The notes under the pieces are model-generated. The model worked only from the letters and a program-made list of their open reading frames with translations, did not search any database and was not told the origin of the DNA. The translations under genes were made by a program, and so were the position numbers. A stretch of 64,000 bases of DNA, from IMG/VR virus record IMGVR_UViG_3300028888_000054; one strand, written 5' to 3'. This document shows positions 4,967-60,147 of the stretch, piece after piece; position 1 is the stretch's first letter, and every line of letters starts with the position of its first letter. The stretch is from a virus. Taxonomy: Duplodnaviria > Caudoviricetes.

Positions 4967-6793
4967 TTTTTATAATATCCTCATTTTTAAATTTGGTTTC
5001 AAGTTCTTTTACCATATCATAAAGTTTTTCAACACAATTGGGGCAGTAATGTGGAAATCTCCAGTCCCCATCATAATCACAAGCGTAAGCATTTATATGA
5101 TCATTTTCTATAAATTCTTCCGAAGGGTCATATTCTCTTCCGCAATGTTTACATATCTCCTTCGCCATCTTCTTCCTCTTCGTAATCATCCATTACTTCG
5201 TCTTCTGTGTAAGTATCTTTTACTTCAAATTCTTCAAACACATAAGCTTCGTTATCATTCGGATAACCATAACATTTTTTTGCAACTTCTTTTGTGCAAA
5301 CACAAATAACATCTGGCTCACCTTCCATCCAAGCATCACAACTGTGAACTACTATTACATCCATATTTACTCCTTTAAATAATCACTCAAATTTGAAACT
5401 TTCTTTAATTTCTTTTTTGGCGCGGCAAATAGAGTTTTTGGTCTTGTATCTCTTTCGCACTCTATCATCATTTCATATTCTCGATCATCAAAAGCAACAC
5501 CAGCTGCAGTAAACATTCCATTATCTACAAGTATAACTGGAAGCTCATCTTTTTCAAGAAAAGACTCAAAATTTGGAACAAACTTTTCGGACCATATCTC
5601 GCAAATAAGTCTTCCATTTTTTGCGAGCCACTCTTCTTTTGTTTCTTTTTTTGGATTTACATATACTCCCATGTTAATCTCCATAAAAATTACAGTTTTG
5701 AACCGCAGTTAAAATTTTATTAATTGCTACTTTGCAATCTGGCTCTAAATCACTATTTACAACAGCAAGTTCTAAATTATTAATGTTGCCAACTTCTTCT
5801 TCAAGAAAAGCGAAACTTGCAAATACTTTATCGCTGCTCAAACTCATATTTACTTGTTTAATCACTATACATCTCCTTAAAATCAATTTCATCATTGTCA
5901 AATTTATTACAAAACTCTTCGTAAAGATCTTGGATTTCTTCTTCTGTTGGATCCTCGCCAAGTTCTATTTTTCTTTCAAGAACTTCACTTAGCATATCAT
6001 CATCGGAAGAAATAAAATCAAATGCCTCTTCTTTAAAATCGCTAAAAGCATCTACATAATCGTTATGAAATTTACAGAGGTCAAATTCTAAGGCCCAAGT
6101 ATCAATTTCACCACACCAACAAACTTGACCACAAACAACATCATCTCCGTAATTAAACGAATGTATTCCGAAAAATCTGTCTTCGTTATCATTCAACGAA
6201 ATTACTAAATACACATTCCTCTCACTTTTTAGTTTTTCTACCATTTTGCTCTTTCTCATCTTGTTCCTCCAAGTATTTAAAACATTCTTCCATTTCTATA
6301 AAACACGGATCAGTTTCCCATTCCGTTATTTCTGATAATTTTTTTTGTTTCGGTTTTTCTTCTGCCACCACCTCTTCCTTTGGTGGCTCTTCTACTTTCT
6401 TTTTTCTTGGCATAATTTAATTATATCATAAAACAAAAAACCCGTCAATACTGACGGGTAATAAAATTATTCTTCTTCTCCTGACCAAGCCGCAACGCCA
6501 TCTGTTGGTATTACGTTTCCTTGATTATTAAACTTTTCTCGAAGCTTTCGATTTCTTTCTTCAAGCTCCGCATCAATTTCCGCTTGCGTTGGCGGTTGCT
6601 CATAAAGTTTATCAAGGGCGCTAGTGTCGCTATAATCTTTCTTTGGTTTTACATTACTTCCTGTTTTTGGTGGCCCTTCTTTTTTGTCGAAAAACTCAAC
6701 ATCAAAATAATTATTTGAAATAGAAATTTTTGAAATATTATCTCTCTTTAAAATTTCTTTAATTTCATCTTTTAATTCTTTCAGATAACCCAT
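4959..6793 (-). CDS. run of small acidic hypothetical phage genes (4959-5189, 5149-5364, 5367-~5672, 5858-6259, 6222-6413, 6467-6793)
   Basis: Tightly packed minus-strand ORFs; 4959-5189 has CxxC...CxxC. Confidence 0.5.
6420..6459 (-). promoter_or_regulatory. terminator hairpin whose 3' arm is the -35 box of a sigma70-type promoter; leaderless start at 6413
   Basis: Minus strand: ACCCGTCAG-TA-TTGACGGGT-TTTTT; TTGACG-N17-TATAAT-N6-ATG. Confidence 0.75.
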
Positions 6794-7458: not shown

Positions 7459-9051
7459 TTACACCTCTTCTAATTTATTTTCTTCAATTTTTACATTAGC
7501 TCCGCTTGTGGCAAGCATAACACCAACAACAGAATTAGCATTTTTTAGAGCTTCTGTCTGAACCTTTAACGGCTCAATGATACCCATATCATATGCTTCA
7601 CCATATTCTCTTGTTTTTGCGTTGTAAGCTAAACCTTTTTCGATACAGTTGTTGTAAATAACATCGCCGTTTTCACCAGCATTTTTCGCAATCTGTTTTA
7701 ATGGTGCCTTTAAAGCTTCTTTAATAATCTTAGCTCCACGTCTCATATCTTCTGTTGGATAGTCTTCATCATTAATTGACAAGTCTTCTCCAATTCTTGC
7801 GTAGTTAATTCCTGCTCCTTCAACAATACCACTTTCAAGAGCTGCCCTTACCGCACAAATTGCATCATCGGCTCTGTCTTTTATTTCCTTTGCCTCTGTT
7901 TCTGTTGGTGCACCAATCTTAATTGTTACCGCAGAACCAGTAAAACGTGCAATGCGTTTCTCCATATTTTCTTTGTCTTTTGTAGACTTCAAATTTTCTT
8001 TCTGATTTTTAAGTGTTTCAACATAAGCATCAATAATTTTCTGCTCGCCCTTTCCGCCAATGATTGTTGTCTCTATTTTTGTAACTTTAACAGTTTTTGC
8101 TTCTCCTAAAAATTCTGGTCCGCAATCTTTTAATTCGGCTCCAGTTGCATCTGTGATAAGGGTAGCTCCAGTAATTGTGGAAATGTCGTTTAACCAATCA
8201 AGTTTTGTTGAAGCATAGCCTGGGCATTTTGTTGCGGCAACCTGAATGTTTCCACTAAGCAGGTTGAGAACAATGATATTCAAAGCCTCGCCCTGAAGTT
8301 CATCACAAACAATAAACAATGGTTTCTTTTGCTCTGCAGCGGCTTCCAAGAATGGAACAATTTCATCTGCTAATGAAATCTTTTTATCTGTTAAAAGAAT
8401 CAAAGCGTCTTCAAAATTTACTTCCATTTTGTCTTTATTGTTTACAAAATAAGGAGACAGCCATCCACTTCCAAAAGTAAAACCATTACTCTCTTCAATT
8501 TCTATTTCTGTTCCGCGAGTTGTTTCTGCATGAACTACACCATCTTTACCAGCAATTTCAAAACCTTTAGCGACAAACCCTCCAAGAACTTCATCATTGT
8601 TTGCTGAAATAGTTGCAACCTTTTCGATGTCACTTTGTGTTTTAAGTTCTGTTTTAGTTTGTTTAAGCTTCTCAATAACAAAAGAAACTGCTCTATCCAT
8701 ACCACGTTTAAGCTCAATTGGCTGACAACCAGCCTCAATTGCTTTATAACCGTCTTTTAACATTTCGTAGCCAAATACAACAGTTGTGCTAGTTCCATCA
8801 CCAGCATTTTCATTTGTTTTTAGAGCAGCCTCTCTAACAACAGAAGCTCCAAGATTTTCTGCTGGATCTTTAAGCTCTATATCTTTTGCAACTGATACAC
8901 CGTCTTTTGTAATGTTTGGTGTATTATATCCAACTGTAGCAAAAAAACGACCACAAGGACCAAGTGTAGAGCCAACAGCTTTTGCCATTTTTTCAGCACC
9001 TGCCAACCATTTTTTTCTTAAATCTTCATCAAAATATATTTCTTTCTTCAT
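7459..9051 (-). CDS. groEL: phage-encoded GroEL/Cpn60 chaperonin
   Basis: STLGP, ITKDGVSVA, AGDGTSTT, GIVEGAG; no C-terminal GGM tail. Confidence 0.95.
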   Translation of the reverse strand: MKKEIYFDEDLRKKWLAGAEKMAKAVGSTLGPCGRFFATVGYNTPNITKDGVSVAKDIELKDPAENLGASVVREAALKTNENAGDGTSTTVVFGYEMLKDGYKAIEAGCQPIELKRGMDRAVSFVIEKLKQTKTELKTQSDIEKVATISANNDEVLGGFVAKGFEIAGKDGVVHAETTRGTEIEIEESNGFTFGSGWLSPYFVNNKDKMEVNFEDALILLTDKKISLADEIVPFLEAAAEQKKPLFIVCDELQGEALNIIVLNLLSGNIQVAATKCPGYASTKLDWLNDISTITGATLITDATGAELKDCGPEFLGEAKTVKVTKIETTIIGGKGEQKIIDAYVETLKNQKENLKSTKDKENMEKRIARFTGSAVTIKIGAPTETEAKEIKDRADDAICAVRAALESGIVEGAGINYARIGEDLSINDEDYPTEDMRRGAKIIKEALKAPLKQIAKNAGENGDVIYNNCIEKGLAYNAKTREYGEAYDMGIIEPLKVQTEALKNANSVVGVMLATSGANVKIEENKLEEV

Positions 9052-11782: not shown

Positions 11783-12385
11783 TTAAAGCCATTTGACGAT
11801 TGTATCGCCTTTATAACCTTTCTCCCATACATACTGACAATAGCAGATTGCGCTTGAACTTCCATCATCTACTCCGTCTTTCCAACAATTTACTCTTTCT
11901 GAATTTACTAATACAAATTTTGGTGGATGTTTTTCAAACAGTTTTTTTCTTGATTTTCCTTCAAGAAACTGAACTCTTAATAAGAATATAAGTTTATCAC
12001 CGTCTTTCATTAAGTCAAGTGCTTTTTCAACGGAAGCCTGGGCAAGTTTGTAAGGAGGATTACTTATAATAGCATCTGAACCATTTCTCATTTCTGTTTC
12101 TTTAAAAAAATCAATTCCTGTATCGCCAAACCCTCTATCAATTAAATCTGAATTTGCTACAACATTAAATCCATTTTCTTCTAAAACTTTTGTTATAGCT
12201 CCGTTTCCGCAAAAACTTTCCCAAATTTTCCAATTTTTACAATCTGGGTAATTTTCTTCTAACCACTTAACTAATTTTTTTGTTGCTGCAGGATCTGTCG
12301 AGTAAAAACCATTAGGCTCTTGAAATTTTTGACTCCCGTTTTTAGTCCCAAGAGTAACTAGCACCCCATGTGTTTTATTATCCAT
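11783..12385 (-). CDS. DNA adenine methyltransferase (small phage type)
   Basis: FYST, WESFCGNG (motif I), ISNPPY (motif IV). Confidence 0.8.
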   Translation of the reverse strand: MDNKTHGVLVTLGTKNGSQKFQEPNGFYSTDPAATKKLVKWLEENYPDCKNWKIWESFCGNGAITKVLEENGFNVVANSDLIDRGFGDTGIDFFKETEMRNGSDAIISNPPYKLAQASVEKALDLMKDGDKLIFLLRVQFLEGKSRKKLFEKHPPKFVLVNSERVNCWKDGVDDGSSSAICYCQYVWEKGYKGDTIVKWL

Positions 12386-13286
12386 TACTTATTTCCTCCT
12401 TTAAAATTTTTTCTATATTAGAAAAATCTAAATATGAAATTTCTAACTCTCTAATACCATTTTTCTTACAAAATTGCCTTTTAACTTCATCTTTTTCTTT
12501 TCTAAGAGAAAGTCCTTCTAAACCTCCCCAACCGTCGACAACATTATAATGCTGTTCTCCTTGATACTCAATTAAAAGATTTTTAGACGGAACATAAAAA
12601 TCAAAAGGTAACTTTTTTTTATATTTGCAGTCTTCGAACTTAAACTGAGCAAAATAATCTTTACCTTCTTTATATCCATTTTTAGCAAACCAATGTCTTA
12701 TTCTTTTTTCGCCAGCCGACTCTCTGCATTTAGGGCATCCATGTTTTTTTAGATGTATTCTTGGTTCCTGCTCGAAAACACCATGCTTAGGGCAAATAAT
12801 TTTTATTTTTGTATTTGCATTTTTATAATCTACTAAACTATAATTATATTTATCGTCATGAACTTCTTTTGCCTTTTTAATAAACTCTTCGGTAGTTGGC
12901 TTATATTTTTTTGCACATTTTGGACATCCTTGCTTTTGCCCTAAGTGTCTATGAACAGTTTGCTCAAAAACTCCATGAACTGAACAAATTATTTTTATTT
13001 TTTCTTCCGTTAGGTATTTTTTTTCTAAATCAACTAAACTGTAATCATATTTATCACCATGAAGTTTTTTTGCTTGTTTTACAATTTCTTCTCCCTTTTT
13101 TGAACTTTTACATCTTTTACATCCGCAGCCAGCTAAATGATGGTGTGGAGTTTGTAAAAAATAAATTTTACAATTTTTACAAAAAATAGTTAATTTATTT
13201 TCATAACCCACATAAACAGTTTTGCTATAATCATATTTATCACCATGAATTTCTTTTGCTCTTTTAATAAATTCTTCCGTTGTCAT
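12378..13286 (-). mobile_element. free-standing homing endonuclease (DUF723-type Zn repeats + PD-(D/E)XK/Vsr-like C-terminus)
   Basis: Repeats TTEEFIK.AKE.HGDKYDYS...CPKHG.F.Q...H...GCPKC; C-terminal LPFDFY...IEYQGEQHY. Confidence 0.8.
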
Positions 13287-23154: not shown

Positions 23155-23586
23155 TTACTCCTCTGAAAAATCTTTTACAAACTTTACACCATTTGGTGGC
23201 ATATGCGATAAATAAAAATTTCCAAAATCTAAAAAGCCATATTTTTTATTTTGGAAAATGCCTGAAGCACTAAAACTAGCATACATTGGAAGCCCTGCTT
23301 GCAAAAGGTCTTTCGCAATTTGCCCATTTGCATTATCTAAAAAATCAACATCAACAAAAACCTGCTTAGTGTCTTCATCATATTCAATGTCTTGAACTAC
23401 ACCAGCAGCTTCTTCTATAAAGTTTGGGTCACCACCTTCTCTAAATAAAAACTTACGATCACTTTCTTCCATAAGTCTTTCCCTGTATGCTTCTGTCGCC
23501 TTTTCCAAAACACTTGCTGGAATAATTCTTCCGTCTTTATCTGGAACTTCTGCTACAGCGGCTAATAATTTTTTATATTCCATCAT
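23155..23586 (-). CDS. T4 gp21-like prohead protease paralog, catalytic His/Ser motifs degenerate
   Basis: AEVPDKDGRIIPASVLEKA ~ gp21 AEVVNRNKRLYPKRILEKA; GGDP replaces LNHP; ASFSASG replaces VSSRG. Confidence 0.6.
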   Translation of the reverse strand: MMEYKKLLAAVAEVPDKDGRIIPASVLEKATEAYRERLMEESDRKFLFREGGDPNFIEEAAGVVQDIEYDEDTKQVFVDVDFLDNANGQIAKDLLQAGLPMYASFSASGIFQNKKYGFLDFGNFYLSHMPPNGVKFVKDFSEE

Positions 23587-30734: not shown

Positions 30735-31301
30735 TTACTCTCCTTAATAAAAACGTCTTATTTTAAGTTCTATAAGACTATCACCATATTTTTTTCTTAT
30801 TTTATTTTCTTCTTTAAAAACCAATTTTTCAAATTCTACAATATTTGTTTTCATATAATTTGTTTTAATTTCAACAGTTTCTTTAAAATAAGAATGAGTT
30901 AAAATCTGTTTCGTAGTTCTAAAAAAGATTTCTGCTATTACCATGTCCTCTCCAAAATTTCTCCACTATTCATTACTTTCTCCAAAATCTTCTACATATT
31001 TTCCATAGTCATCGACAAAATCTTTGAATCTATAAGAAATTTCCGCTCTATTAAATTCACTACACTCTTGCGATACAACATCTGTAACTTCTACTTCATT
31101 AAAGATCTTTGAAGTTCCATCGTCATAACTAATTGTCATTTTTTTAGTTTCATTGTCGTAATTGACTTTTGTAATTTTACGCTGCGCTTTTAGTTCCTCG
31201 TCATTCACAAAATCTTCGATCGTTCTTACTGTTCCAATAAGACTGTCATATACTTTTTGCAAGTCTTTAAAGTCTGTTGAATATTTTACCATTCTTCCCA
31301 T

Positions 31302-38390: not shown

Positions 38391-38876
38391 TGCTAAACTT
38401 CCTATTTAGAAATGCCTGAACAGCGTTCCAAGAAGTTTCGGCTGGAAAGTGAAGAATTTCTACAATAGAGCATCTTTCGGTAATAATAATTGTTAACCCT
38501 TTTGTTCCTTTTTCATAACCGAAAACGTCAAACTCTGGTGTCATTGTAAATTCTATATAATTGTCTTCATTATTTATTTCTGAGTATGAAACTGTTTCCG
38601 TATTGTAGGCCACATCTTCATCCAATTTATATCCCTGAATTTTAAACTGAGATAAATCAGCAAAACCAATTGTTTCAACATCTACTCCTACCATAATTAT
38701 CTCCTAAAAATGATCTACAAATTCTTGATTTATTTTTTCAAGAAACTCTTCTAAAATCTTATAATCATAAAACTGCAATCTTAGTTCTACTTGTCCAGCG
38801 CCTTCTTCCACTGCAGACAGTATATCAACTTTATCGTCACATTCTTCACTTGTCAGGAAATTTAACGCATCTTTTG

Positions 38877-39347
38877 TCATGGGTGTTCCGCCTCTCCAAA
38901 CACTGGTTTTATGTAATAAATATGATCACTTGGCGCAGCCATAGGTTGCTCACTGATTAAGGGTGGAAGCTTAATTATAGGAATAGTATATTTCTTTAAA
39001 GATTTTTCTTGTTCCTTTTTCTCTTGTTTAAAAACTTCTACATTTCGTTCTTCTTCGAAATCTTCAGCATAACCTTCTTCAAAGTCTTCTACATAGTGCC
39101 CATCATATTCTCTTATAATTTCTTGAACTTCTTGTTCTTGTTGTTCTTCTTTCAAAAAACTATCAGCAACATCTCCAAAAAGAGGGCCCTTTTTTACCAT
39201 TTCTTGATAAGAGTTTTCAAGCATTTGTGCAGTGTTAAATCTTTCTATGTCATTATCAATGTCTTTTGTGAGCCAAGACCATCTTGCCTTTATTTTATCT
39301 ACTTGAGATTGCTGTGCTGTATCTACCTCTCTTTTAGTCATCTCCAA
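38877..39347 (-). CDS. truncated paralog of the major capsid protein N-terminus
   Basis: RWSWLTKDIDNDIERFNTAQMLENSY vs capsid RWSWITEDIEDAETRLNTQLVLENSY; ISEQPMAAPSDHIYYI vs VSVQPIQQPTGVIYYI. Confidence 0.8.
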   Translation of the reverse strand: MEMTKREVDTAQQSQVDKIKARWSWLTKDIDNDIERFNTAQMLENSYQEMVKKGPLFGDVADSFLKEEQQEQEVQEIIREYDGHYVEDFEEGYAEDFEEERNVEVFKQEKKEQEKSLKKYTIPIIKLPPLISEQPMAAPSDHIYYIKPVFGEAEHP

Positions 39348-39774
39348 AATCCTTTACATAGTGCTGCCCTGGATCGAGCTCTTTATCTTCTGGTTCTAGT
39401 GCTTGCGACATAACTGGAGAAGAAGTATAATATACTGGATTTACCCCATACATCCCCGTCTGGGCAGAATTACGGCATGCCCACATAAATGAAGACGCAA
39501 CTTGCGGATCAAAAAAGCGTATTCGAACTTCAGCTGCTTGCATATTAGGGTCGTATCCTGCAGCCTCTATGTTACAACTTTCAAGCATCCATGAGTTTGG
39601 ATTATTTAATAAAACTTCTGCAATATTTTGACTACTGAGCGTCATTGCTTGCTGCTGCACTTGTGCCCTAAGATTAGACATATCTGCTAAATAATCTTGA
39701 TAAACACCGATACTTGACGTAAGTTCTATATTATTTCTTTTTAAAGCTTCTATAACTTTTTGCGAAATCCCCAC
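39334..39774 (-). CDS. hypothetical protein
   Basis: GTG start coupled to the stop of dnaE part 3. Confidence 0.5.
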   Translation of the reverse strand: MGISQKVIEALKRNNIELTSSIGVYQDYLADMSNLRAQVQQQAMTLSSQNIAEVLLNNPNSWMLESCNIEAAGYDPNMQAAEVRIRFFDPQVASSFMWACRNSAQTGMYGVNPVYYTSSPVMSQALEPEDKELDPGQHYVKDFGDD

Positions 39775-41307: not shown

Positions 41308-42180
41308 TTATACCCCTGAAGCTTTATTTTGTAAATATGATTTTGATACAATTTTTACAATCCCATCGTCGTCTTCAATCTTTACAAGCTCTTCATCTAC
41401 AGATTCTACAGCATTTGAAATTACTTCCAAAACTGTAATTGCCAAAAAGTCATACTTAATTACTCCAAGTTCATCCAACTCTGTGTTTCCACCATTTTCT
41501 ACAAACGCAGATGCTACTCCATCCTTTGTATGAACAACTGGAATATATTCCCAAACTGGTTTATCCATAATAAGACATCCACCTGCGTGCTGACCAACCT
41601 GACGCACCTGTCCTATAATTTTTGGAGTAAAGTCCAAATATGCTTTATTTCTCTCGTAAGTTTCATAAAGAACTGGATGATTTTCTGCATACATTTTCAT
41701 ATTTTCTTCAAAGCTCAACTCTTCATCAAGTTCCTTACAGAAATCATTACTCTCTTTAAATGGCACTTCACACTTTCTGAGAATATCCTTAATTGCAGAA
41801 GCTAAACCAACTGTTCCATAAGCCGCTACGCCCATTACTCTTTCGGGGCCATACTTTTCAATAAGCATTTGCTTTGCAGCTTCTTTTGCTTTTGGCTCGA
41901 AGTCTGTATCAATATCCAAACCACCAGAACCGCCACGTTTAATCTGAACAATTTCAAGAGGCTTTGATAAATCTACTTTGTCTGTTTTACCCAAAAAGAA
42001 CGGAAGAACATATCTATCATCGCATCTTTTTTTTGAATTTAAAATTTCATCAGCTATATTTATTTTTTCATCTTCTAATAACCACTTTGCTCTTCTTAGC
42101 TCTTTAAGAGCACGATCTTTATATTCTGGATACTCTTTTATTTTTTGAGCAACTAATTTCTTTAAATCTTCAAAAGTCAT
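41308..42180 (-). CDS. dnaE: DNA polymerase III alpha, part 2: catalytic palm/thumb
   Basis: LDIDTDF, EKYG, RQVGQHAGG, IKYDFL. Confidence 0.9.
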   Translation of the reverse strand: MTFEDLKKLVAQKIKEYPEYKDRALKELRRAKWLLEDEKINIADEILNSKKRCDDRYVLPFFLGKTDKVDLSKPLEIVQIKRGGSGGLDIDTDFEPKAKEAAKQMLIEKYGPERVMGVAAYGTVGLASAIKDILRKCEVPFKESNDFCKELDEELSFEENMKMYAENHPVLYETYERNKAYLDFTPKIIGQVRQVGQHAGGCLIMDKPVWEYIPVVHTKDGVASAFVENGGNTELDELGVIKYDFLAITVLEVISNAVESVDEELVKIEDDDGIVKIVSKSYLQNKASGV

Positions 42181-43124
42181 AAATTTTCCTCTAAAATTTC
42201 TTCTATAATTTTATAATCCCAATAAGGAATTGTCAATAATTTTATTTTTTTATTTTTTGCAAAACACTTTTTTATATCATCTCTTTCTTTTTGCTCTAAC
42301 AGATTTTTATTACCGCCAAAATAATCTATCGGTTTATAATGTTGCACACCTTGATACTCAATTAAAAGATTTTTGGAAGGAATGTAAAAGTCAAATGGTA
42401 ATGGTTTTTGGGCTTTTCCGCAACAATCTTTGAAAATAAATTCTTGATTATAACTTATTCTTTTTGCTTCTAAGTAGACTCTAATTTTTCTTTCACCTTT
42501 ACTTTCTCTGCATTTTGGGCAACTGTTATTCTGGTTTTCAGAAATATGATGCATTGGTGTTTGAAAAAAACTTCCGTGTTTTGGGCAAATAATTTCTATT
42601 TTTGTATGATTATTTATATAATTTACTTTTGAGTAATCATATCTATCACCATGAATTTCTTTTGCTTTTTTAACAAACTCTTCTGTTGTTAATCTTCTTT
42701 TTAAGGATCTATCATCTTGAGCGCATTTTGGACACTTATCTCCGCTTAAATGATTTGTTGGTGTTTGAAAAAAACTTCCATGTTTTGGACAAATAATTTC
42801 TATTTTTGTTTTTGCATTTATATAATTTACTTTTGAATAATCATATTTATCTCCATGAACTTCTTTTGCTTTTTTAACAAACTCTTCTGTTGTTAATCTT
42901 TGCTTTTCCCCTTTTTCTTTAAGTTTTTGTTTTCCACAGTCTGGGCACCCTTGTCCTCTAAAATGCTGTCCAGGAGTCTGTTTAAAAGAACCATGTTTTG
43001 GACAAATAATTTCTATTTTTGTTTGATAATTAACATAATTAACCATTGAATAATCATATTTATCACCATGAACTTCTTTTGCTTTTTTAATAAATTCTTC
43101 TGTTGTTAATTTTTTAGTAGTCAT
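42177..43124 (-). mobile_element. free-standing homing endonuclease (DUF723-type repeats x3) inside the dnaE locus
   Basis: Three LTTEEF.KKAKE.HGD.YDYS...CPKHGSF.QTP..H repeats; LPFDFY...IEYQGVQHY. Confidence 0.82.
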
Positions 43125-43162
43125 ATATTTATCTTGTTACCGATCGAACTTTTATAACAAAT

Positions 43163-44410
43163 TTATCTCTCGTTAAAATAATCATATTTTACACTCACTA
43201 ATCTTTCAGAAGATACAAACCTTTCAAACAATAATCCAAGTTTAATTGGATCAATTACCCAAGAAGTAATTCCAAGACAAGCACAAGTCAAACTTCCACC
43301 TGCAGAACCGCGCCCACTTCCAAGCATATACTCCTGCTGTTTTGCCCAATTAATTACAGAAGACAAATTCAACAAATAACGATAAGCACCCTTCTTTAAA
43401 AGAGTCTCAAGTTCTAGTTCAAGTCTGTCCTTATATTCTTGTGGACAATCATCATAATCACAACCAAAATGCTTTGCCAGTCCTTCTTTTGCAAGTTTTA
43501 CAAAATCTTCTTCCTCATCAAAAGAGAATCTTGGCAACTTCATACCTGTCCCCAAAGGAATAACAAAATTGCACTTTTCTGCAATCTTATCTGAATTTGC
43601 ACACCATTCTTCTATTTGTTCATCTGTGTATCCATAATTCCAACCCTTGTTAAACTGCTTGAAATCATCTACGCTCTGATAGAACAATGATTTACACTTG
43701 TATGTATCATCTCCTTCTGAATCTTCATCTTTTCTAAGATTGAAAATAAATCTCTGAGTTTGCGCACCTTCTCTTGTTGCATAATGCACGTCGCCCGTAA
43801 TTACAACGGGAACGTTATATTTTTCTGCAATTTTTATAATCCAATCATTATATTTCTTTTGGTCTTCTACAAGTTCGTTTAACTGAATTTCGGCATAAAA
43901 GTTTTCGCCAAACTCATCAACAAATCTTTTAAAATAAGCTTCTGCTTTTTCTTCATTGCCTGCAAGAACGCATTGAGAGAATATAGATGCCAAACAAGCC
44001 GAGCCTACAATTATCCCTTCTTTGTATTGAAACAATTCTTCAAATGTATTTCTTGGTTTATAATAAAAGTGATCTTCATCAATGTTTGAGATATAATTCA
44101 AATGACAAAGATTTTTCCAACCAGTTTCATTAGAAGCCAAAAGAATAATATGATTATAATGAGTTCTCTTTCTTTTCTTACCTTCCATTGTTACCAATTC
44201 TTCTACAAGATATCCTTCCATTCCGAGAATTGGTTTTACACCTTTTGAAATTGCATACTGTTGAAATTTAAAAAGTCCAGACATCATTCCGTGGTCTGTT
44301 AAGGCAAGCGCTTTATGCCCATTATTTACTGCCTGATCTACTAATTCTGTTACTGAAGATACAGCGTCATAAAATGACCCCTCTTTACTATGAACATGTA
44401 AATGAACCAT
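43163..44410 (-). CDS. dnaE: DNA polymerase III alpha, part 1: PHP domain to GS motif
   Basis: HLHVHS, TDHG, G.E, H, SACL, GDVHY, GSGRGSAGGSL, LLFERF; start MVHLH at 44410 after GAGGTG. Confidence 0.92.
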   Translation of the reverse strand: MVHLHVHSKEGSFYDAVSSVTELVDQAVNNGHKALALTDHGMMSGLFKFQQYAISKGVKPILGMEGYLVEELVTMEGKKRKRTHYNHIILLASNETGWKNLCHLNYISNIDEDHFYYKPRNTFEELFQYKEGIIVGSACLASIFSQCVLAGNEEKAEAYFKRFVDEFGENFYAEIQLNELVEDQKKYNDWIIKIAEKYNVPVVITGDVHYATREGAQTQRFIFNLRKDEDSEGDDTYKCKSLFYQSVDDFKQFNKGWNYGYTDEQIEEWCANSDKIAEKCNFVIPLGTGMKLPRFSFDEEEDFVKLAKEGLAKHFGCDYDDCPQEYKDRLELELETLLKKGAYRYLLNLSSVINWAKQQEYMLGSGRGSAGGSLTCACLGITSWVIDPIKLGLLFERFVSSERLVSVKYDYFNER

Positions 44411-44432
44411 CTTTTCACCTCTTTTTCTTTTA

Positions 44433-44476
44433 ATTATACCACAAATAAAAAAAGCAGTCAAGACTGACTGCTTTTT
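44433..44476 (-). promoter_or_regulatory. terminator hairpin whose 3' arm is the -35 box of the dnaE promoter
   Basis: AAAAAGCAGTCAG-TC-TTGACTGCTTTTTTT; TTGACT-N17-TATAAT. Confidence 0.78.
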
Positions 44477-44495: not shown

Positions 44496-44906
44496 TTATT
44501 CGTCAAGGAACGGTTTTCGCCATTTTGCTGCTGGTTTTACAGTAAACCAAGTTGGCTTTACAATTTCTATTGTTGCCTCATTAGTGCTACCAAGATTTCC
44601 TGCTATAGCAGGACATAAATAAAGATCTATTCCATTACTCTTAAACTTTTTTAAAGTTTCCACAAACTCATCAAGAACAGTAACATCCGCATAAAGCGAA
44701 TCGCCTTCAACATGGAAATTTGTAATTGTGCCAACCAAATGTTCAATATCGGCATCATCTTTAAAACCATCATCTGGCACATTATCAACTAATGGAACAA
44801 TATAATCTCTATTTTCTTTTTCAAACTCTTTTAAAGTTTTTAAAGAATAATAATATCCATTTGCATTTACAATATCAGCTCTTAAAAATTCAACTGTCTT
44901 TTTCAT
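44496..44906 (-). CDS. second gp21-like prohead protease paralog, degenerate
   Basis: FLRADIVNANGYYYS, VGTITNFHVEGDSLYADVTVLD; no HP or SSRG. Confidence 0.55.
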   Translation of the reverse strand: MKKTVEFLRADIVNANGYYYSLKTLKEFEKENRDYIVPLVDNVPDDGFKDDADIEHLVGTITNFHVEGDSLYADVTVLDEFVETLKKFKSNGIDLYLCPAIAGNLGSTNEATIEIVKPTWFTVKPAAKWRKPFLDE

Positions 44907-45401
44907 TCTATTTCTCCTTTTTCTTTAAGTCTATCTATTTCTTTTTTAAAAGAAGGTGAGTTGTTATAGAAGTAATCAAACACCTCATCTTCTGGTATAG
45001 CCTCTAATTGTTTTAAACAATTATCAAGAATTTGTAAACTTTCTTCTTTTGTCATTTTTCAACCTCGTCAAACGATTCTACATATTTAAACATTTTCTTT
45101 GGTATAAGTTTTTCAAGTGAAAAAAATGTCCAAGCTTCGGGTTCACTACATTCAGTTCCTGAAACTTGCTTCCAACCTGATAAATCTGGCTCTTTTTCCA
45201 TAATAAAATCATTTTCATTTTCCCAAGCGTCAGTTTCTCGGTAAAATACCTCTGTATGCCCAATATAAGTAAAACCAATCTCGCCTCTGTCATTTCTTAC
45301 AGTAAGCTCTATAATATATTGCCTATAAACACCTTTATTTTCGTTTCCTATGCTGTCATAAGGAACTTCGTGCTTTGGAACAAAGTATTTTGCTTCCATT
45401 T

Positions 45402-46217: not shown

Positions 46218-47042
46218 ATGGCAGCAGATAAAAGCAAAAAACTTTCGCTTCTTAATGAAGAACTTGACGAAGAATCAGCAACATACATTCAAGAGTCAAT
46301 TGAAAACTGGAAAGAGGGTGTTATGGCCCAGCTTCAAGAAGAAGTAGAAAGAGCAAAAGCAGACAAACTAGAAGAACTGGAAGAGCTTAATCTTAGATAC
46401 CGTGAGCAGTTGGCAGAAGAATATTCTGACAAACTTACAACAGCTCTTGCAGAACTTAAAGAAAGTGTTAAAGCTGATGCTACCGCTAGCGTATTGAAAA
46501 ACAACCCAGAATTAAAAATTCTTGAACAAATTAAAGATTTGGTAGCCCCACTTCTTGATGAAAACTTCAGAGAAAATTCTTATTCTGATACAATCGCTCA
46601 ATTAGCGGAAGAAAACGCAGCTTTAAGAAGAGAACAGGAAATTACAGAGGGCGCACAAGTACTTGCTGAACTTCTTGCACCATATGCAGACACAACTCAA
46701 AAGTTGGTTCTCTCTATGATTAAAGAAGGTAGCCCAGAAGAGGTAACTGAACAATTCTATAGTATTATGGAATCGCTACAAGACGTTTTTGGTGAAGCTG
46801 AAGACGGCGACGATAACGGAGATGACGGCGACGACGATGACGACGCTAAGAAATCAAAGAAAAACGGCGACGACGATGACGATGACGAAAACGGTGACGA
46901 TGATGACGACGAAGACGGAGAAGATGATGACCTTGGTGAGTCTTTCTTAGACGAAGGATTCTATGGTGATGACGATGACGATGTAGAGAATGACAAAGAT
47001 TTCTCTAAAATCAAAAACATTATGAAGTCTTATATAAAATAA
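46218..47042 (+). CDS. prohead core/scaffold protein (gp22-like) with Asp-rich tail
   Basis: Acidic coiled coil directly upstream of the capsid gene, many L/I-x-E sites, C-terminal MKSYIK, GGAGG SD. Confidence 0.75.
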   Translation: MAADKSKKLSLLNEELDEESATYIQESIENWKEGVMAQLQEEVERAKADKLEELEELNLRYREQLAEEYSDKLTTALAELKESVKADATASVLKNNPELKILEQIKDLVAPLLDENFRENSYSDTIAQLAEENAALRREQEITEGAQVLAELLAPYADTTQKLVLSMIKEGSPEEVTEQFYSIMESLQDVFGEAEDGDDNGDDGDDDDDAKKSKKNGDDDDDDENGDDDDDEDGEDDDLGESFLDEGFYGDDDDDVENDKDFSKIKNIMKSYIK

Positions 47043-47061: not shown

Positions 47062-48555
47062 ATGCTTACAAATAATTTAGTTGATAAAGCGCGTTTTGAA
47101 GAGCAGCTTAACGACCGTTGGTCTTGGATCACAGAAGACATCGAAGATGCCGAAACAAGACTTAATACTCAATTGGTTCTTGAAAACTCATATAGATATA
47201 TGATTCAAGAAGGTTCTATTGCACGCAACTGGCTTGAAAATAACATTCTTTCAGAAGAAGTTATCGAAGAAGCGCCACAGATGAGAGGAGCAGTTGGTGA
47301 TTATGTAATCCCTAAAGTAATGTTCCCAATCATCAGACGTGTTATGCCAGAACTTATTGCTAACAAATTGGTTTCAGTTCAGCCAATTCAGCAGCCAACT
47401 GGTGTAATTTACTACATCAATTACGACTACTCAAATGACAAGGGAACTATCAAAGCAGGCAACGAATTCTCTGGTGCACCACAGCAGACAACTCCAGCTT
47501 TCGCTACATGGTACTCTTCAGAAAAAATTGGACCTTTTGTTGCAAAAACAGATAAATCTACTGGTGTAGTTGACTTCGGTGCACAAACTGGTATCACAAA
47601 CTTCTTGGGAACAAACCCAGCTGAATATAAAATTAAACGTTTCGAAGTTTACAACAGAACAACAGGTAAAGCAATCGCTACTGTTTATGGTGGAAGCAAA
47701 GATAACGTAACATTTGACCCTGCAACTGGTGCTATTACAGTAACAGTTCCAGCATCAGCATTCTTCGGCGACGAAGATAATGAATTTGAAGCATTCTTGG
47801 TATACGATCAGGAAGGAACTTCAAAGATTCCAGAGATGGAATTCCACATCGACCACATGAACGTTGAGACAACTGAACGTAAATTGAAGGTTAGATGGAC
47901 TAAAGAAGCTGAACAGGATATGATGGCTTATCACAAGATCGACGTAGAACAGGAGCTTGTAAAAGTTGCTTCTATTCAGACAAACTACGAAGTAGACCGT
48001 GAAGTTATCAGATTCATTGATGATCATATCATCTCTGACCTTTCTCAGATTCACAACTGGACAGACGACGCAGCAACTACAGGTAATAATACACAGGGTA
48101 ACTACCTTGATAGACACCGCTGCTTGGCACAGAAACTTTATGCTGCTTGTACAAAAGTAGCTACATTCAACCACCTTGGACCATGTGATTGGGCAGTTGT
48201 ATCTCCAAAGATTGCAGCAGTTCTTCAGATGCTCCCAGACTGGAAAGCAGGTGAAATCGCTAGTGGTAAATCAACTTACTACAATGCTGGTACACTCGGA
48301 AACGGTTCTTTGGCAATCTACGTTGATCCAAACAGATGCGGTGCTCAAGAAGACGAAATCACTCTTGGATACAAATCTAAGGATTCAACATACGGTGCTG
48401 GTGTAGTTTACTCACCATACGCTAACTGGATGTCAGGAACAGTTGTTAACCCAGACAACTTCAACAACGTAAGAGGATTCTTCAACAGATATGCTATTTC
48501 TATGGCACCTCGTGGAGAATACAACTACGCAAGAGTTAGAATTAACAACTTGTAA
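47062..48555 (+). CDS. major capsid protein (T4 gp23-like)
   Basis: PIIRRVMPELIA..LVSVQP..QPTG, IPEM.F, RKLK..WT.EAEQD..A.H.ID.EQEL, E.DRE, GYK, YSPY, F..RY; strongly biased codons. Confidence 0.95.
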   Translation: MLTNNLVDKARFEEQLNDRWSWITEDIEDAETRLNTQLVLENSYRYMIQEGSIARNWLENNILSEEVIEEAPQMRGAVGDYVIPKVMFPIIRRVMPELIANKLVSVQPIQQPTGVIYYINYDYSNDKGTIKAGNEFSGAPQQTTPAFATWYSSEKIGPFVAKTDKSTGVVDFGAQTGITNFLGTNPAEYKIKRFEVYNRTTGKAIATVYGGSKDNVTFDPATGAITVTVPASAFFGDEDNEFEAFLVYDQEGTSKIPEMEFHIDHMNVETTERKLKVRWTKEAEQDMMAYHKIDVEQELVKVASIQTNYEVDREVIRFIDDHIISDLSQIHNWTDDAATTGNNTQGNYLDRHRCLAQKLYAACTKVATFNHLGPCDWAVVSPKIAAVLQMLPDWKAGEIASGKSTYYNAGTLGNGSLAIYVDPNRCGAQEDEITLGYKSKDSTYGAGVVYSPYANWMSGTVVNPDNFNNVRGFFNRYAISMAPRGEYNYARVRINNL

Positions 48556-53355: not shown

Positions 53356-56214
53356 ATGAAAAGTTTTAAAGATTTTTGTAAAGAACAAGTGATTGAAGAA
53401 GCAACCCTTGCAGCTGCAGTTGAACAAGCAAAAGAAGAGGGAGATTTAGAGCCAATTAATAAAAAAATAAAAGAAATAGAAAAAATACAAAACAGCTGTG
53501 AAGATCCAGACAAGAAACAAAGCCTAGAGAATGCTTTAAAAAAATTCAAAGAAATACTTAGCAAATTTCAAAAAAAATTTTCTATTGTTACAGAAGCTGA
53601 ACCAGCCCAGGAGCAAGACGATGATGATCAAGAAGATGACTATAAAGAACTTTGGGCCAATGCAGAAGAAAGAGCAAAAGAAGTTGATGATGCAGTAAAA
53701 AGCATAAACATAATTATTAGTAAAGATAATGACAATATAACAAACGACAATGCTCGCTATGCTACTAATAAATTACTTAAAGACCTTTTAGGCATTTTAA
53801 ATGGGGACACTAGCACTTTGTCAAAAGCTGCTAATTTTATTAATATCGCTGCAAAATCAAAAGGCGAACCTAAGGCTCTAACCCTAAAAGAACTTGTAAG
53901 TTGTTTTAACACAGCAAAAAAAGAAGGGGTAAGTTCAGCCTCTTTAACAAGTAAAGATATAGCATCTCCAAAATTTAAAACTGGTTTAATAGTTGGCCTT
54001 GGTATTTTACTTCTAAAAAAACACGCGGGCTCACCAGATTTTACAATTCAAGGAATGGCAAAAGATTCTGAATATGCTGGAGATAAAGTGCTTGGGGAAG
54101 TTTCTAATTCTTTTTCTAATATAAACATAGATAATAGCCTAAAAGAAAAAATTGGCTTACAAGACATTAGCAAAAGTGATACTTTTATTAAAGCTGTTGA
54201 AACTTTTGTTGATAAGCTTTTTGAAGGAAAGCTTGTTAATAGCAAACTAGCGAATACTGAAAACATTAGTAAAACTAACCCAAAAGTGGAACCAGACGAA
54301 ACTAGCCAAAGTAAAACTAATCCCGAAAACATTAGTAAAGCTGATCCTGAAGAAAAATCTAGTGAAATTAGTAAAGCTGATCCTGAAGAAAAATCTAGTG
54401 AAATTAGTAAAGCTGATCCTGAAGAAAAATCTAGTGAAACTAGTTCAAACGAAAACAAAAATTATAAACTTTTTTCATTAAACTCAAAATCTTCACCAGA
54501 AGAAATAAACAATGCAGTTAAAGAATTTTTTGGAGACGGAGATAAAAGTAAACTGGAGCATTTCTTAACAAAAGTAGAAATGCAAAAATCTGAAAACGTT
54601 GCAGTTGGACAAGAAAGAAAAGATTACAACCTGGAAAACTTAGCAAAATACAAAAGAGACCACGAAGATGTTGAAGATAATGGCAATAATGTTTCTGAAA
54701 ATTATGTGCTAAATACATTATATAACAATCCACTTATTTATGAAGGATTTAAAAATTTTGTAAGAAACGTTCATAGCAACCTGCCAACTGTTGGTAGATT
54801 TAAAGTCGGCAATTATAAATCATCTGAAAAGTCTTGGGAAGCTTGTATTTCAAGAATGAAAGAGGCTCAAGCTGAATACGAAAAAAAAGCAGTTGCTATT
54901 TCTGGAAAAGCAACAAGCCCTAATTGTTCTATACCTCAAAAACATTCTCTTTTAACAAAATTAAAATCACTTGCGGGCGAATACAATATTCATTTAAATG
55001 GTATTTTTGAGCAATGCAAGAAAAGAAATGGCTACAATGCAATCGGCTCAGCAATTCATGATGCAAAAAGTGGTTGGTATAAACAACAAATTGATAAGTT
55101 TGAAAAATCAAAAGATACAAACGCTTACAGAGAAAAGCTAATCTCAAAAGAAAACATCAAGAAAGCAATTTCTAATTTATCTACCGAAGAACTTGACAAA
55201 ATAACAAGTATGGGTGGTATAAAAAACAAATATTTATTTGCCTATGGAATTTTAAGTGTTGCCAAAAACAACAGAAAAGGTTTATTTGAAAGAGATATTG
55301 TAAACGGCAAAGGTAATGTAGAAAAAGGTTTAAAAAATATATTGGATAATAACACCGAGGCTTTTGGTGTAGATGCAGACACAAACCTTTATGATTTTGC
55401 TGATATGCTTTTCAACAGCAATAAAGATATTCAAAAGTGGGTTGAGGAAAACAGTAAACAATATGAAACAAGATTAAGAATAGATCCACTTTCTGATGAA
55501 CTAAGACTTCTGCAATCACAAGGAAAAGCTTGGCTAGAAAAAACCTCACAGCAACAACGCTCTGGTGCAGACTTTAAAAAAGAGTTTGGAATTAATGAAT
55601 CAGTATCAAGCATTTCTTTTAAAGAATTTTGTGTTCTTTACGAAGCTGAACAAACAGAACAGCCAACGCAAAGTCAAGGACAAGGTCAACCTACTCCAGA
55701 ACCACTGTGCAAAAATGATAAAGATAAAAGCATATTAGCAACTTTATTTTTGATTAATAACAACTCAAGTGATACAGCCAGAGAAGCTGCAGCTAAATAC
55801 TTAGCAAGCAAAAATGAAGACAAAAAGGGATATACTGTAAACGATTACTTAACAGCAGCAAAAACTTATAGAGAAGATAATGCTAGCGATAATACATACG
55901 TAGACCTTTGTAATTTCTTTAACAAACTTTTAACTTCTCCTGGAAATAATGGTCAGCCACAACAGCCAGTTCAAGCAACACAGGGCCAACAACCACAACA
56001 ACCACAACAAACTGGGGCTAGTCAACCTAATATAAATGATATATCAACACAAAATGACGATAGTGAAACTGGTGCAGGTGTTGAACCTGCCGATAACAAT
56101 TATTCTGTTGCAACTCCGCAAGCAACAGTAACAACTGGTGCAGTTGGGGATTGCAAAATACCAGATAGGTTATATAGAAAAATAATAAGAAGAAAAATTA
56201 ATTCATTTGTATAA
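53356..56214 (+). CDS. large putative internal virion protein
   Basis: Plus strand like the capsid gene; N-terminal MKSFKDFCKEQVIEEA resembles T4 capsid-targeting leaders; internal SFKEFCVLYEA. Confidence 0.55.
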   Translation: MKSFKDFCKEQVIEEATLAAAVEQAKEEGDLEPINKKIKEIEKIQNSCEDPDKKQSLENALKKFKEILSKFQKKFSIVTEAEPAQEQDDDDQEDDYKELWANAEERAKEVDDAVKSINIIISKDNDNITNDNARYATNKLLKDLLGILNGDTSTLSKAANFINIAAKSKGEPKALTLKELVSCFNTAKKEGVSSASLTSKDIASPKFKTGLIVGLGILLLKKHAGSPDFTIQGMAKDSEYAGDKVLGEVSNSFSNINIDNSLKEKIGLQDISKSDTFIKAVETFVDKLFEGKLVNSKLANTENISKTNPKVEPDETSQSKTNPENISKADPEEKSSEISKADPEEKSSEISKADPEEKSSETSSNENKNYKLFSLNSKSSPEEINNAVKEFFGDGDKSKLEHFLTKVEMQKSENVAVGQERKDYNLENLAKYKRDHEDVEDNGNNVSENYVLNTLYNNPLIYEGFKNFVRNVHSNLPTVGRFKVGNYKSSEKSWEACISRMKEAQAEYEKKAVAISGKATSPNCSIPQKHSLLTKLKSLAGEYNIHLNGIFEQCKKRNGYNAIGSAIHDAKSGWYKQQIDKFEKSKDTNAYREKLISKENIKKAISNLSTEELDKITSMGGIKNKYLFAYGILSVAKNNRKGLFERDIVNGKGNVEKGLKNILDNNTEAFGVDADTNLYDFADMLFNSNKDIQKWVEENSKQYETRLRIDPLSDELRLLQSQGKAWLEKTSQQQRSGADFKKEFGINESVSSISFKEFCVLYEAEQTEQPTQSQGQGQPTPEPLCKNDKDKSILATLFLINNNSSDTAREAAAKYLASKNEDKKGYTVNDYLTAAKTYREDNASDNTYVDLCNFFNKLLTSPGNNGQPQQPVQATQGQQPQQPQQTGASQPNINDISTQNDDSETGAGVEPADNNYSVATPQATVTTGAVGDCKIPDRLYRKIIRRKINSFV
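54331..54438 (+). repeat. 36-bp tandem repeat x3 (ISKADPEEKSSE)
   Basis: ATTAGTAAAGCTGATCCTGAAGAAAAATCTAGTGAA, three exact copies. Confidence 0.95.
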
Positions 56215-58439: not shown

Positions 58440-59429
58440 TTACCCCTTCTTTACTCTCTTTAAAACTTCCTTAAAACATTCAAGAAGTTTTTCATTATTT
58501 ATATCAGACTTTTTAGTTTCTTTCAAGTATTTTACCATACTTACTGCAACACCTTCGTTTGCATCAATCTTTGAACGAATGGAAGTATCTGCTGTTTCAT
58601 TTTTTACAAACTTTGCGTTAACTTCTACCGCTCCTTTTGCTATCATTATATCACGAAGTTTTACAAAGTTTTCAATTTTAGAATCAATAATAACATCTAC
58701 TATATTATTTTTATATTCTATTGAACTATCAGTTAATGCGTCAGATAGCGACACTTCCAAATAATCTGGAGCATCTTTATATTCAACTAACTCATAATCT
58801 GTTCCGTCAATAACGCAGAAATAATGTTCATGATTTGAAGCTTCATCTCTTCTAGTTGCATACTGAGAGCCTGGAAAAACAAATTTTCCTTTTTCTTGCT
58901 TTTTATGCAAATGGCCGCTAACAACTAAATCATAATGTTCAAAACTGTCTTCTATAAATGTTTTATCTTCGCATTTTTTATATGGATTAAAATAAAACCC
59001 TTCTACTTCTAGGTGAGTAAATAAAACTTGTCCTTTGTTTGGTAAATCTGATAGGTTCTGAGTATACGATAAGAAATCATAATCCACACCACCGATATTA
59101 ATTGTTTCTGATTTTTTTACAAAATGAGCAAAAGCCTTAAAAGACTCTAGCAGAGTATCACCATCATCGTTCATTTTGTCGTGATTGCCGCTAAAAACAA
59201 TAAGTTCTATACCCGCCTCTTTAATTTCATAAAGTTTATTAAAAAACGGCATAAACATTTGGTTTCTTATGTTGTTAGATGTATCAAATAAGTCACCACC
59301 CAAAACAACATATTTAATGTTATACTCTTTACAATACTTTTCAATATAATCTAAAAAATTAAGACATTCCGTTAGTCTTATTAAATCTTTGTTAAGGTGT
59401 AAATCACTAATAAAAATTATTTTTTCCAT
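58440..59429 (-). CDS. SbcD/Mre11-like nuclease (gp47)
   Basis: SDLH, GGDLFD, GNHD, FTH, SGHLH, PGS. Confidence 0.93.
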   Translation of the reverse strand: MEKIIFISDLHLNKDLIRLTECLNFLDYIEKYCKEYNIKYVVLGGDLFDTSNNIRNQMFMPFFNKLYEIKEAGIELIVFSGNHDKMNDDGDTLLESFKAFAHFVKKSETINIGGVDYDFLSYTQNLSDLPNKGQVLFTHLEVEGFYFNPYKKCEDKTFIEDSFEHYDLVVSGHLHKKQEKGKFVFPGSQYATRRDEASNHEHYFCVIDGTDYELVEYKDAPDYLEVSLSDALTDSSIEYKNNIVDVIIDSKIENFVKLRDIMIAKGAVEVNAKFVKNETADTSIRSKIDANEGVAVSMVKYLKETKKSDINNEKLLECFKEVLKRVKKG

Positions 59430-60147
59430 ATATCTCCTTCAAAAGTATTTTTTCTATATCTTTATTTTCTTTAAAATTAATCCTTACAAGCCTTATTTTA
59501 TTTTCTTCGCAAAATCTATTTTTAATTTTATCGTTAAACTGTATTTTTGTCAAGTTTTCTTCTTTAAACTTTGGATAAAAATGCTGAGATCCATCATATT
59601 CTATTAATAAATTTTTTTCTGGCAAATAAAAGTCAAACGGCAACTCTCTTTTATTTTTACATTTTTTAAACTTTTGTTCTCTCTTATATTTTATATTATT
59701 TTTCACTAAAAAGGCTTCTATTTCTCTAACCCCTTTACTATCTTTTTGTTCCGCTATGCATTTTGGGCAATCTTGACCCCTTAAATGATTATTAGCTTCT
59801 TGAAAAAAATCTCCATGCAAAGGACAAACTATATTTATAACCTCGTGAAGGTTATTGAAGCTTACTTTTGAGTAGTCATATTTAATTTTATGATTATTTT
59901 TACTTCTTTCTATAAAATTTTCTAACGAAAGTTTTTTCTTTATACCATTTTTTGTTTTCCCGCATTCTGGACATCCTTGTCCTGTTAAATGCGCTCTTGG
60001 CTGTTGTTCAAATACCCCATGAATTGGGCAAATAATTTTTACTTTTGTAGAAGCATTTTTATATTCTGTTGAACCGTAGTCATATTTATCATCGTGAACA
60101 ACTCTTGCTTTTTCGATAAAAATTTCTGTGGTTACTTTTTTAGGCAT
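59407..60147 (-). mobile_element. free-standing homing endonuclease (DUF723-type repeats x2)
   Basis: H.DKYDY...CPIHG.F.Q...H..GQGCP.C; LPFDFY...IEYDGSQH. Confidence 0.8.

Follow-up and report, generated by a model that had tools for sequence, protein, structure and literature searches.

A small gene of an uncultured T4-like phage encodes a stand-alone copy of the capsid protein N-terminal extension with an acidic peptide shared by other phage proteins

The window analyzed here is the whole 64,000-nucleotide stretch of DNA from IMG/VR virus record IMGVR_UViG_3300028888_000054. It comes from a large uncultured T4-like phage whose lineage is known from metagenomes alone; the nearest capsid proteins of isolated phages are ~25% identical. 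An open reading frame at positions 38877-39347 of the minus strand was confirmed. It had been described in an earlier note as 156 aa long; the frame exists, but the TTG codon at 39347 is an alternative start, and the likelier one, the downstream ATG at 39341, gives a protein of 154 aa. This ATG is preceded by AAAGGA 8 nt upstream, and the predicted protein, hereafter referred to as S, begins with MTKREVDT. The start of S overlaps the stop of an upstream 146-aa gene by 8 nt, while its own stop codon and the start codon of the following gene overlap in ATGA. The features of the locus, and those elsewhere that bear on it, are collected in Table 1.

Table 1. Position and basis of assignment of the features discussed in the text (positions are those of the window unless a locus is named)
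Feature	Position	Strand	Basis or remark
S gene, capsid N-terminus copy, 154 aa	38877..39341	-	likely start ATG 39341; database entry P0004
S module 1, propeptide-like helical hairpin, residues 3-51, RWSWLT...NT..LENSYQEM	39189..39335	-	AlphaFold2 and shuffles
S module 2, acidic core YDGHYVEDFEEGYAEDFEEERNVEVFK, tandem [YF]V/A-E-D-F motif	39027..39107	-	invariant columns, 11 orthologues
S module 3, N-arm-like, YTIPIIK..PPL..S.QP...P.DHIYYIKPVF	38898..38990	-	shuffles and hhalign
Upstream 146-aa gene, tail GQHYVKDFGDD	39334..39774	-	tail invariant in homologues
Downstream 58-aa gene, ends ...QEFVDHF-COOH	38704..38880	-	L006 orthologue ends ...QEYVETF-COOH
111-aa protein, ends ...RFKDFVDDYGKYVEDFGESNE	30966..31301	-	tail kept in IMG/VR orthologue L007
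143-aa protein, ends ...KFVKDFSEE	23155..23586	-	tail kept in IMG/VR orthologue L008
115-aa protein, ends ...KYVESFDEVEK	45052..45399	-	occupies slot of relative's T gene
Acidic scaffold-like protein directly upstream of MCP	46218..47042	+	position and composition only
MCP, gp23-type major capsid protein	47062..48555	+	Pfam Gp23 8.8e-56; PHROG major head protein
MCP residues 1-127, part copied by S	47062-47442	+	alignment
952-aa protein, starts MKSFKDFCKEQVIEE|ATL	53356..56214	+	T4-type capsid-targeting sequence, then VIEE|A site
T family, 94 aa, MYVETFLAE and capsid propeptide hairpin	L004:2895-3179	+	also P0022, P0050

The earlier note had aligned the frame by eye with about the first 120 residues of the phage's own capsid protein (MCP). 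This alignment is highly significant: BLASTP paired ORF residues 3-147 with MCP residues 2-120 (E 4e-12), and the whole ORF scored z=15 in comparison with 1000 shuffles. When parts of S were compared with MCP separately (1000 shuffles), residues 1-60 matched MCP 2-53 with z=17 and residues 115-154 matched MCP 85-119, in colinear position, with z=5.8; the middle part was without similarity. An hhalign comparison of the S and MCP families returned a probability of 99.1% (E 1.5e-18, columns 14-148 against 13-126), and P0018, a divergent member of the S family, matched the window MCP with E 3e-17 over 133 residues. By both BLASTP and hhalign, S is homologous to the propeptide and N-arm of the capsid proteins of this clade. 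S is colinear with MCP residues 2-127 and, as had been pointed out, ends before the rest of the HK97 fold, at the place where the E-loop and body would begin; the HK97-fold body of Pfam PF07068 (E-loop, P and A domains) was not matched, S stopping at about MCP residue 127. The acidic insertion, ~32 aa in S, does lie at the inferred MCP cleavage junction (...EVIEE|APQ). The gene was also correctly placed on the strand opposite to the capsid gene, ~8 kb away from it and downstream of the third piece of dnaE. No second full capsid paralogue was found in the window. Searches of Pfam, PHROGs, PDB profiles and the ESM Atlas gave no match for S, and the scaffold-like protein was without a family match in Pfam and PHROGs. 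A resemblance of the S segment VFGEAE to the scaffold was not significant (E 0.19), and the segment is not conserved across orthologues.

Three modules can be distinguished in S. Residues 3-51 were modeled by AlphaFold2 with the family alignment as a two-helix hairpin with pLDDT of 86-93, and the positions RW.W..(D)I, NT and LENSY..M of this hairpin are conserved alike in MCPs and in the small proteins. Everything beyond residue 55 was modeled as disordered. The second module, predicted disordered with pLDDT below 50, stands in place of the MCP cleavage junction and N-fist; it can be written as YDGHYVEDFEEGYAEDFEEERNVE.FK and comprises a tandem GHYVEDFEE/GYAEDFEE. The third module is the counterpart of MCP residues 85-127 and of T4 gp23 residues ~93-127, and itself gives a weak match to T4 gp23 97-146. 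Docking of the acidic motif on the hairpin was not seen in the AlphaFold2 model. The N-terminal regions of T4 gp23 are disordered inside the prohead and move out only on expansion (PMC9958956). What S reproduces is therefore the interior-facing extension of the capsid protein and nothing else.

About 20 intact relatives of S (counted as clusters), 38-70% identical, are present in metagenomes. A word-indexed search found ten relatives with 51-68% identity, and an exhaustive profile search added the divergent members P0018 (135 aa) and P0040 (113 aa) as well as forms that lack the first helix. The columns of the acidic core are invariant across 11 orthologues and form the most conserved part of S; the divergent members keep GHYVEDFDEGQYVEDFE, and P0014, P0019 and P0020 are without the first hairpin helix, with the acidic core kept. 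The acidic stretch is thus not the mere insertion that it had been taken for, but the invariant core of the S family. Among the relatives, P0010 carries an in-frame deletion of the second helix together with a short duplication (IKLPPLTS), P0021 and P0013 are apparently one S gene split by a frameshift, and P0042 has a changed stop codon that adds 5 residues. GenBank phages yielded no DNA or protein match for S, for the 146-aa protein or for the T protein described below. Scans of IMG/VR, metagenome contigs and GTDB genomes with the S alignment returned nothing; four related loci (L004 and L006-L008) were recovered by single-protein scans, while the 115-aa protein used as such a query recovered no locus.

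On a tree of the hairpin region S forms one group (support 94/96), and S together with T stands apart from the N-termini of MCPs (support 88/91). The separation of S from the capsid N-termini implies that the copy is old and has not been homogenized with the capsid gene of each phage. Relatives of MCP are far more numerous (>344 clusters against ~20 for S), which marks S as an accessory rather than a core gene. In one IMG/VR relative, L006, the order dnaE part 3 - (HNH) - 146-aa gene - S - 56-aa gene - 122-aa gene - methyltransferase - 384-aa gene was found, with the gene order and the same overlaps kept as in the window. For S in this one distant pair of loci dN was 0.49 and dS 2.2, the latter saturated, with a ratio of ~0.22. 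The operon neighbors gave dN of 0.03-0.25 and ratios of 0.09-0.33 in the same comparison. S is the fastest-evolving gene of the operon, yet not a neutral one. The significant alignment, the existence of orthologues and the purifying selection, estimated from this distant syntenic orthologue, support the view of the earlier note that S is a retained, functional stand-alone copy of the capsid N-terminus.

Besides S, at least five small proteins of the phage carry the acidic motif, including the products of both flanking genes (Table 1). In the window open frames the pattern [YF]V[EKD]xF occurs 12 times against 3.8 expected, and seven occurrences lie no more than 8 residues from the C-terminus against 0.4 expected, a number reached in none of 1000 shuffles. 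The pattern was defined post hoc; independent support is provided by the invariance of tails in homologues and by their retention in loci L006, L007 and L008. The seven tail matches comprise five real genes, with the motif 0-5 residues from the C-terminus, and two antisense frames. The tail of the 146-aa protein is unchanged in all 26 homologues examined, whose remaining sequence is 53-99% identical. These homologues and those of S were found on contigs of the same six sizes (30547, 36284, 40612, 8815, 34833 and 6010 bp), and the 146-aa gene adjoins S in L006 too; the two genes are linked in relatives. The fold of the 146-aa protein was poorly modeled (mean pLDDT 55) and had no Foldseek match. 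The 111-aa protein links the two forms of the peptide by having RFKDF immediately next to KYVEDF. A PIP-box or beta-clamp reading of QHYVKDF was considered and rejected, since the Q is not common to the other tails. Judged by sequence, the five acidic tails look like a docking peptide for one common partner. That the acidic stretch is the most conserved part of S, and that it is shared with the tails of other proteins, is new here.

S belongs to an operon with dnaE and a methyltransferase gene behind a σ70-like promoter, with a terminator at 35481-35460. This arrangement suggests that S is expressed early or middle rather than late. A copy of the candidate late-promoter motif AAGWTAA, AAGATAA, is present at 39383-39389 (minus strand), 42 nt upstream of the S start and within the 146-aa gene. 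With 52 copies against 71 in shuffles, the motif is less frequent in the window than expected by chance, so this copy says nothing about the timing of S. The earlier note had also drawn attention to the occurrence of a capsid-derived gene in a replication region. The position is as described, but there is nothing unusual about it, since the scaffold and MCP genes themselves form a two-gene island among genes for GroEL, UvsX, SSB, a helicase, a three-piece DnaE, dUTPase and SbcCD. The phage GroEL-type chaperonin is encoded at 7459-9051 on the minus strand (phrog_5725, E 2e-133), no co-chaperonin being identified in the window, and may be relevant to the folding of the gp23-type capsid protein.

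Three copies of one HNH homing-endonuclease family (phrog_559) are present at 12378-13286, 42177-43124 and 59407-60147, all on the minus strand. The second of them splits dnaE parts 1 and 2 of the window (41308-44461), which in L004 are one 709-aa ORF (3816-5945); in L006 an HNH gene lies between dnaE part 3 and the 146-aa gene instead. From these comparisons with L004 and L006, the insertions are mobile and recent. A 136-aa gene at 44496-44906 is conserved beside dnaE in L004.

Neither a prohead protease nor a portal gene was found in the window. Two genes considered as degenerate prohead proteases (23155-23586 and 44496-44906, both on the minus strand) received no support from Pfam, PHROGs or a PDB sequence search. 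T4 gp67, gp68, gp20, gp21 and gp22 gave no usable match to the window, the only hit of gp21 being at 23553-23485 with E 0.25. Cleavage motifs of the [VI]IEE type ([VI]I[ER]E) are common in the window, and the IIRE/IIEE site in S, though compatible with processing, is for that reason uninformative.

The acidic peptide of S resembles the leader of another protein of the phage, of 952 aa. This protein starts with MKSFKDF...VIEE|A, much as T4 IPI starts with MKTFKEF, and VIEE|A also occurs in MCP. Similar starts are found in T4 IPII and IPIII (both MKTYQEFIAE) and in T4 gp61.1 (MKTFKEFIKE). In T4, targeting sequences bring proteins into the prohead core, residues 4 and 7, two aromatics, being critical (PMC9026906). 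The likeness between the acidic peptide and the T4 leader is short; there is one extra residue between the aromatics, and the peptide is C-terminal or internal where the leader is N-terminal. The 952-aa protein had no PHROG match and is a candidate packaged polyprotein. It also contains an internal SFKEFCVLYE|AE, encoded at 55618-55629.

In close relatives of the phage a second kind of small protein, T, combines a peptide of the same type with the capsid propeptide hairpin (Table 1). It is 63% identical to the capsid protein of its own phage (E 1e-18), and its gene lies 2 kb from the capsid gene; the family occurs on contigs of up to 200 kb. The window has no copy of T, and the slot that T occupies in the relative is taken by the gene of the 115-aa tail-bearing protein.

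A parallel exists in T4 itself. Gene 61.1 (54 aa, uncharacterized, located between primase gene 61 and 61.2) is, like S, a small stand-alone ORF among replication genes, and, again like S, its product resembles part of the N-terminus of its own phage's gp23 combined with a targeting-type peptide: MKTFKEFIKE is joined to a copy of gp23 residues 57-93 (E 6e-9). The two proteins have no detectable sequence similarity to each other (BLASTP E 1.0). They also differ in what is copied: only the cleavage junction and N-fist in gp61.1, but the propeptide hairpin and N-arm in S, where other sequence stands in for the junction and N-fist; the targeting-type peptide is N-terminal in gp61.1 and internal in S. 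In a literature search gp61.1 was named in no title or abstract. S, T and gp61.1 are all separate small ORFs with significant similarity to the N-terminus of their own phage's capsid protein, and each of these three unrelated mini-genes joins part of the capsid N-terminal extension to what appears to be a docking-type peptide.

Comparison can also be made with the established small proteins of the T4 head. The internal proteins IPI, IPII and IPIII, to which S may be likened, are small accessory proteins of low conservation whose genes lie outside the head module; an aromatic-x-acidic-aromatic peptide directs them to the prohead core and is followed by an (L/I)xE site (PMC9026906), and it is the 952-aa protein of the window that has such a leader. 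Unlike the IPs, S has no N-terminal MKT[YF][QK]EF with (L/I)xE, but has the internal tandem YVEDF/YAEDF and a capsid-derived segment that the IPs are without. T4 gp67, the acidic internal peptide precursor, and gp68 are small, partly very acidic components of the scaffold core that are cut by the head protease (PMC9026906, PMC9958956). Their genes lie inside the head cluster between portal and protease, whereas S lies downstream of dnaE, and their acidity comes from long D/E runs, that of S from a defined aromatic motif. In tblastn searches neither gp67 nor gp68 hit the S gene; gp67 found nothing, and gp68 gave no more than a chance match in another place (E 2.6). The N-terminal propeptide (delta region) of gp23-type/HK97-type capsid proteins is homologous to module 1 of S, with the same positions conserved. 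In S this propeptide stands as a gene product of its own and lacks the shell-forming body. In every case described so far, to our knowledge, the propeptide is an integral part of the capsid protein. Reuse of an interaction segment has a precedent in SaPI CpmB, a small satellite protein that reuses such a segment of a head-assembly protein to bind its partner. Mimics of the CpmB type are encoded by a parasite and copy the scaffold, while S is the phage's own and copies the capsid N-terminus.

We consider S to be most probably, at about 40%, an accessory protein of the prohead interior, either a passenger or a linker between shell and core. Its three building blocks are the hairpin of the capsid propeptide, the tandem acidic [YF]V-E-D-F peptide, which lies where the capsid protein is cut at maturation, and the capsid N-arm segment. 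With the hairpin and N-arm, S would occupy, beneath the shell, the contact sites of the capsid N-terminal extension on the scaffold core and/or neighboring subunits. The acidic peptide would dock on a partner shared with the five or more small proteins that have a C-terminal copy; the resemblance of the peptide to the phage's T4-type capsid-targeting sequence makes the prohead core the most likely partner. The prohead protease would trim or remove S, and S would be a longer analogue of the gene 61.1 product and of the small core and internal proteins of T4. The [YF]V[EKD]xF peptide shared among proteins and its pairing with pieces of the capsid N-terminus make the evidence lean to head assembly rather than to a decoy, which was one of three roles suggested in the earlier note, next to a regulator of head assembly or of the prohead protease and a factor interfering with related phages. 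Several observations sit less easily with a prohead-interior protein: the operon with its σ70-like promoter, dnaE and methyltransferase (yet T4 internal-protein genes are also dispersed beyond the head module), the different placement and spacing of the peptide relative to the T4 leader, the commonness of the cleavage-type motif, the AlphaFold2 model in which the motif is not docked on the hairpin, the small number of S clusters relative to MCP clusters, and the failure to find protease and portal genes in the window.

A wider proposal, tentative and in our estimate rather improbable, would extend the prohead-interior reading to T4-like phages from T4 to uncultured jumbo phages, which would have repeatedly evolved mini-genes combining a core-docking peptide with a piece of the capsid extension, as in S, T and gene 61.1. 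In the present lineage the acidic peptide [YF]V[EKD]xF would act as a new capsid-loading signal, independent of position though mostly C-terminal, and mark a whole set of small proteins that are packaged and possibly injected. S would then serve as an adaptor tying the marked proteins, or the core, to the shell.

Among the alternatives, the best placed, though unlikely, is that S is an assembly brake or regulator made before the capsid protein, together with the replication genes, and is not a head component. It would occupy the sites on scaffold, chaperonin or protease that are meant for the capsid N-terminal extension and so delay or shape assembly; in a variant, S would titrate the protease as a competing substrate, like T4 Inh. 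The operon context behind a σ70-like promoter and the phage's own GroEL agree with such a role, and S copies exactly the interaction-prone extension and nothing of the shell-forming body. The conservation of the same hairpin positions in S and MCPs implies a shared partner, but S evolves faster than its neighbors while the MCP hairpin is highly conserved, and a brake leaves the acidic peptide in five other unrelated small proteins unexplained.

Another explanation is that the shared tails dock on a replication or transcription hub such as the sliding clamp, where S would tether its propeptide-like module; the function of S would then not be head assembly as such. We regard this explanation, next in order, as improbable. 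The tail-bearing genes are all among replication genes, and a motif at the extreme C-terminus in an acidic context recalls the clamp-binding tails of T4 gp43 and gp55. These tails are of the SLDFLF type (SLDFLFG, SLDFLYEAND), however, and have only the DF dipeptide in common with the motif. In two motif-bearing families, S and T, the peptide is fused to capsid-derived segments, its RFKDF variant matches the phage's own capsid-targeting-type leader, and a clamp gene was not identified in the window.

A bolder reading makes S a decoy that is produced early and aimed at host sensors of the capsid N-terminus; it would present this segment so as to soak up a sensor or co-factor before the real capsid protein appears. 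In T4 the Gol region, gp23 residues 93-122, activates the Lit protease through EF-Tu, and module 3 spans the counterpart of this region. The probably early expression of S beside a DNA methyltransferase gene, its fast evolution, as in an arms race, and its patchy presence among relatives would also fit. We nevertheless think a decoy quite unlikely. The most conserved part of S is not capsid-derived, and it is kept in the three relatives that lack the first hairpin helix; a mimic of an activating region should set off a Lit-type system rather than block it. The presumed host, Treponema, is not known to have a sensor of this kind. Avs-type sensors studied so far recognize the conserved core fold of the capsid protein and not its extensions (PMC13581612).

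The remaining possibility, that S is a non-functional remnant of a partial duplication of the capsid gene, is essentially excluded: the in-frame deletion in P0010, the apparent frameshift split of P0021 and P0013 and the highest dN of the operon would suit it, but intact ORFs with an invariant core persist in ~20 clusters, S forms a clade separate from MCPs, synteny and translational coupling are conserved in L006, and dN/dS is ~0.2 in that comparison, with saturated dS.

As a decoy, S would be the first case of a phage-encoded capsid N-terminus mimic that acts against immunity. T4 gene 61.1, so far unstudied, gains a family context. If the prohead-interior reading of S is true, the peptide would be a sequence signature for packaged or injected proteins in uncultured jumbo phages and a natural handle for C-terminal loading of cargo into T4-type heads. 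It would also mean that a capsid propeptide can act as a separate protein, which would bear on how the shell is coupled to the core in large prolate or high-T-number heads.
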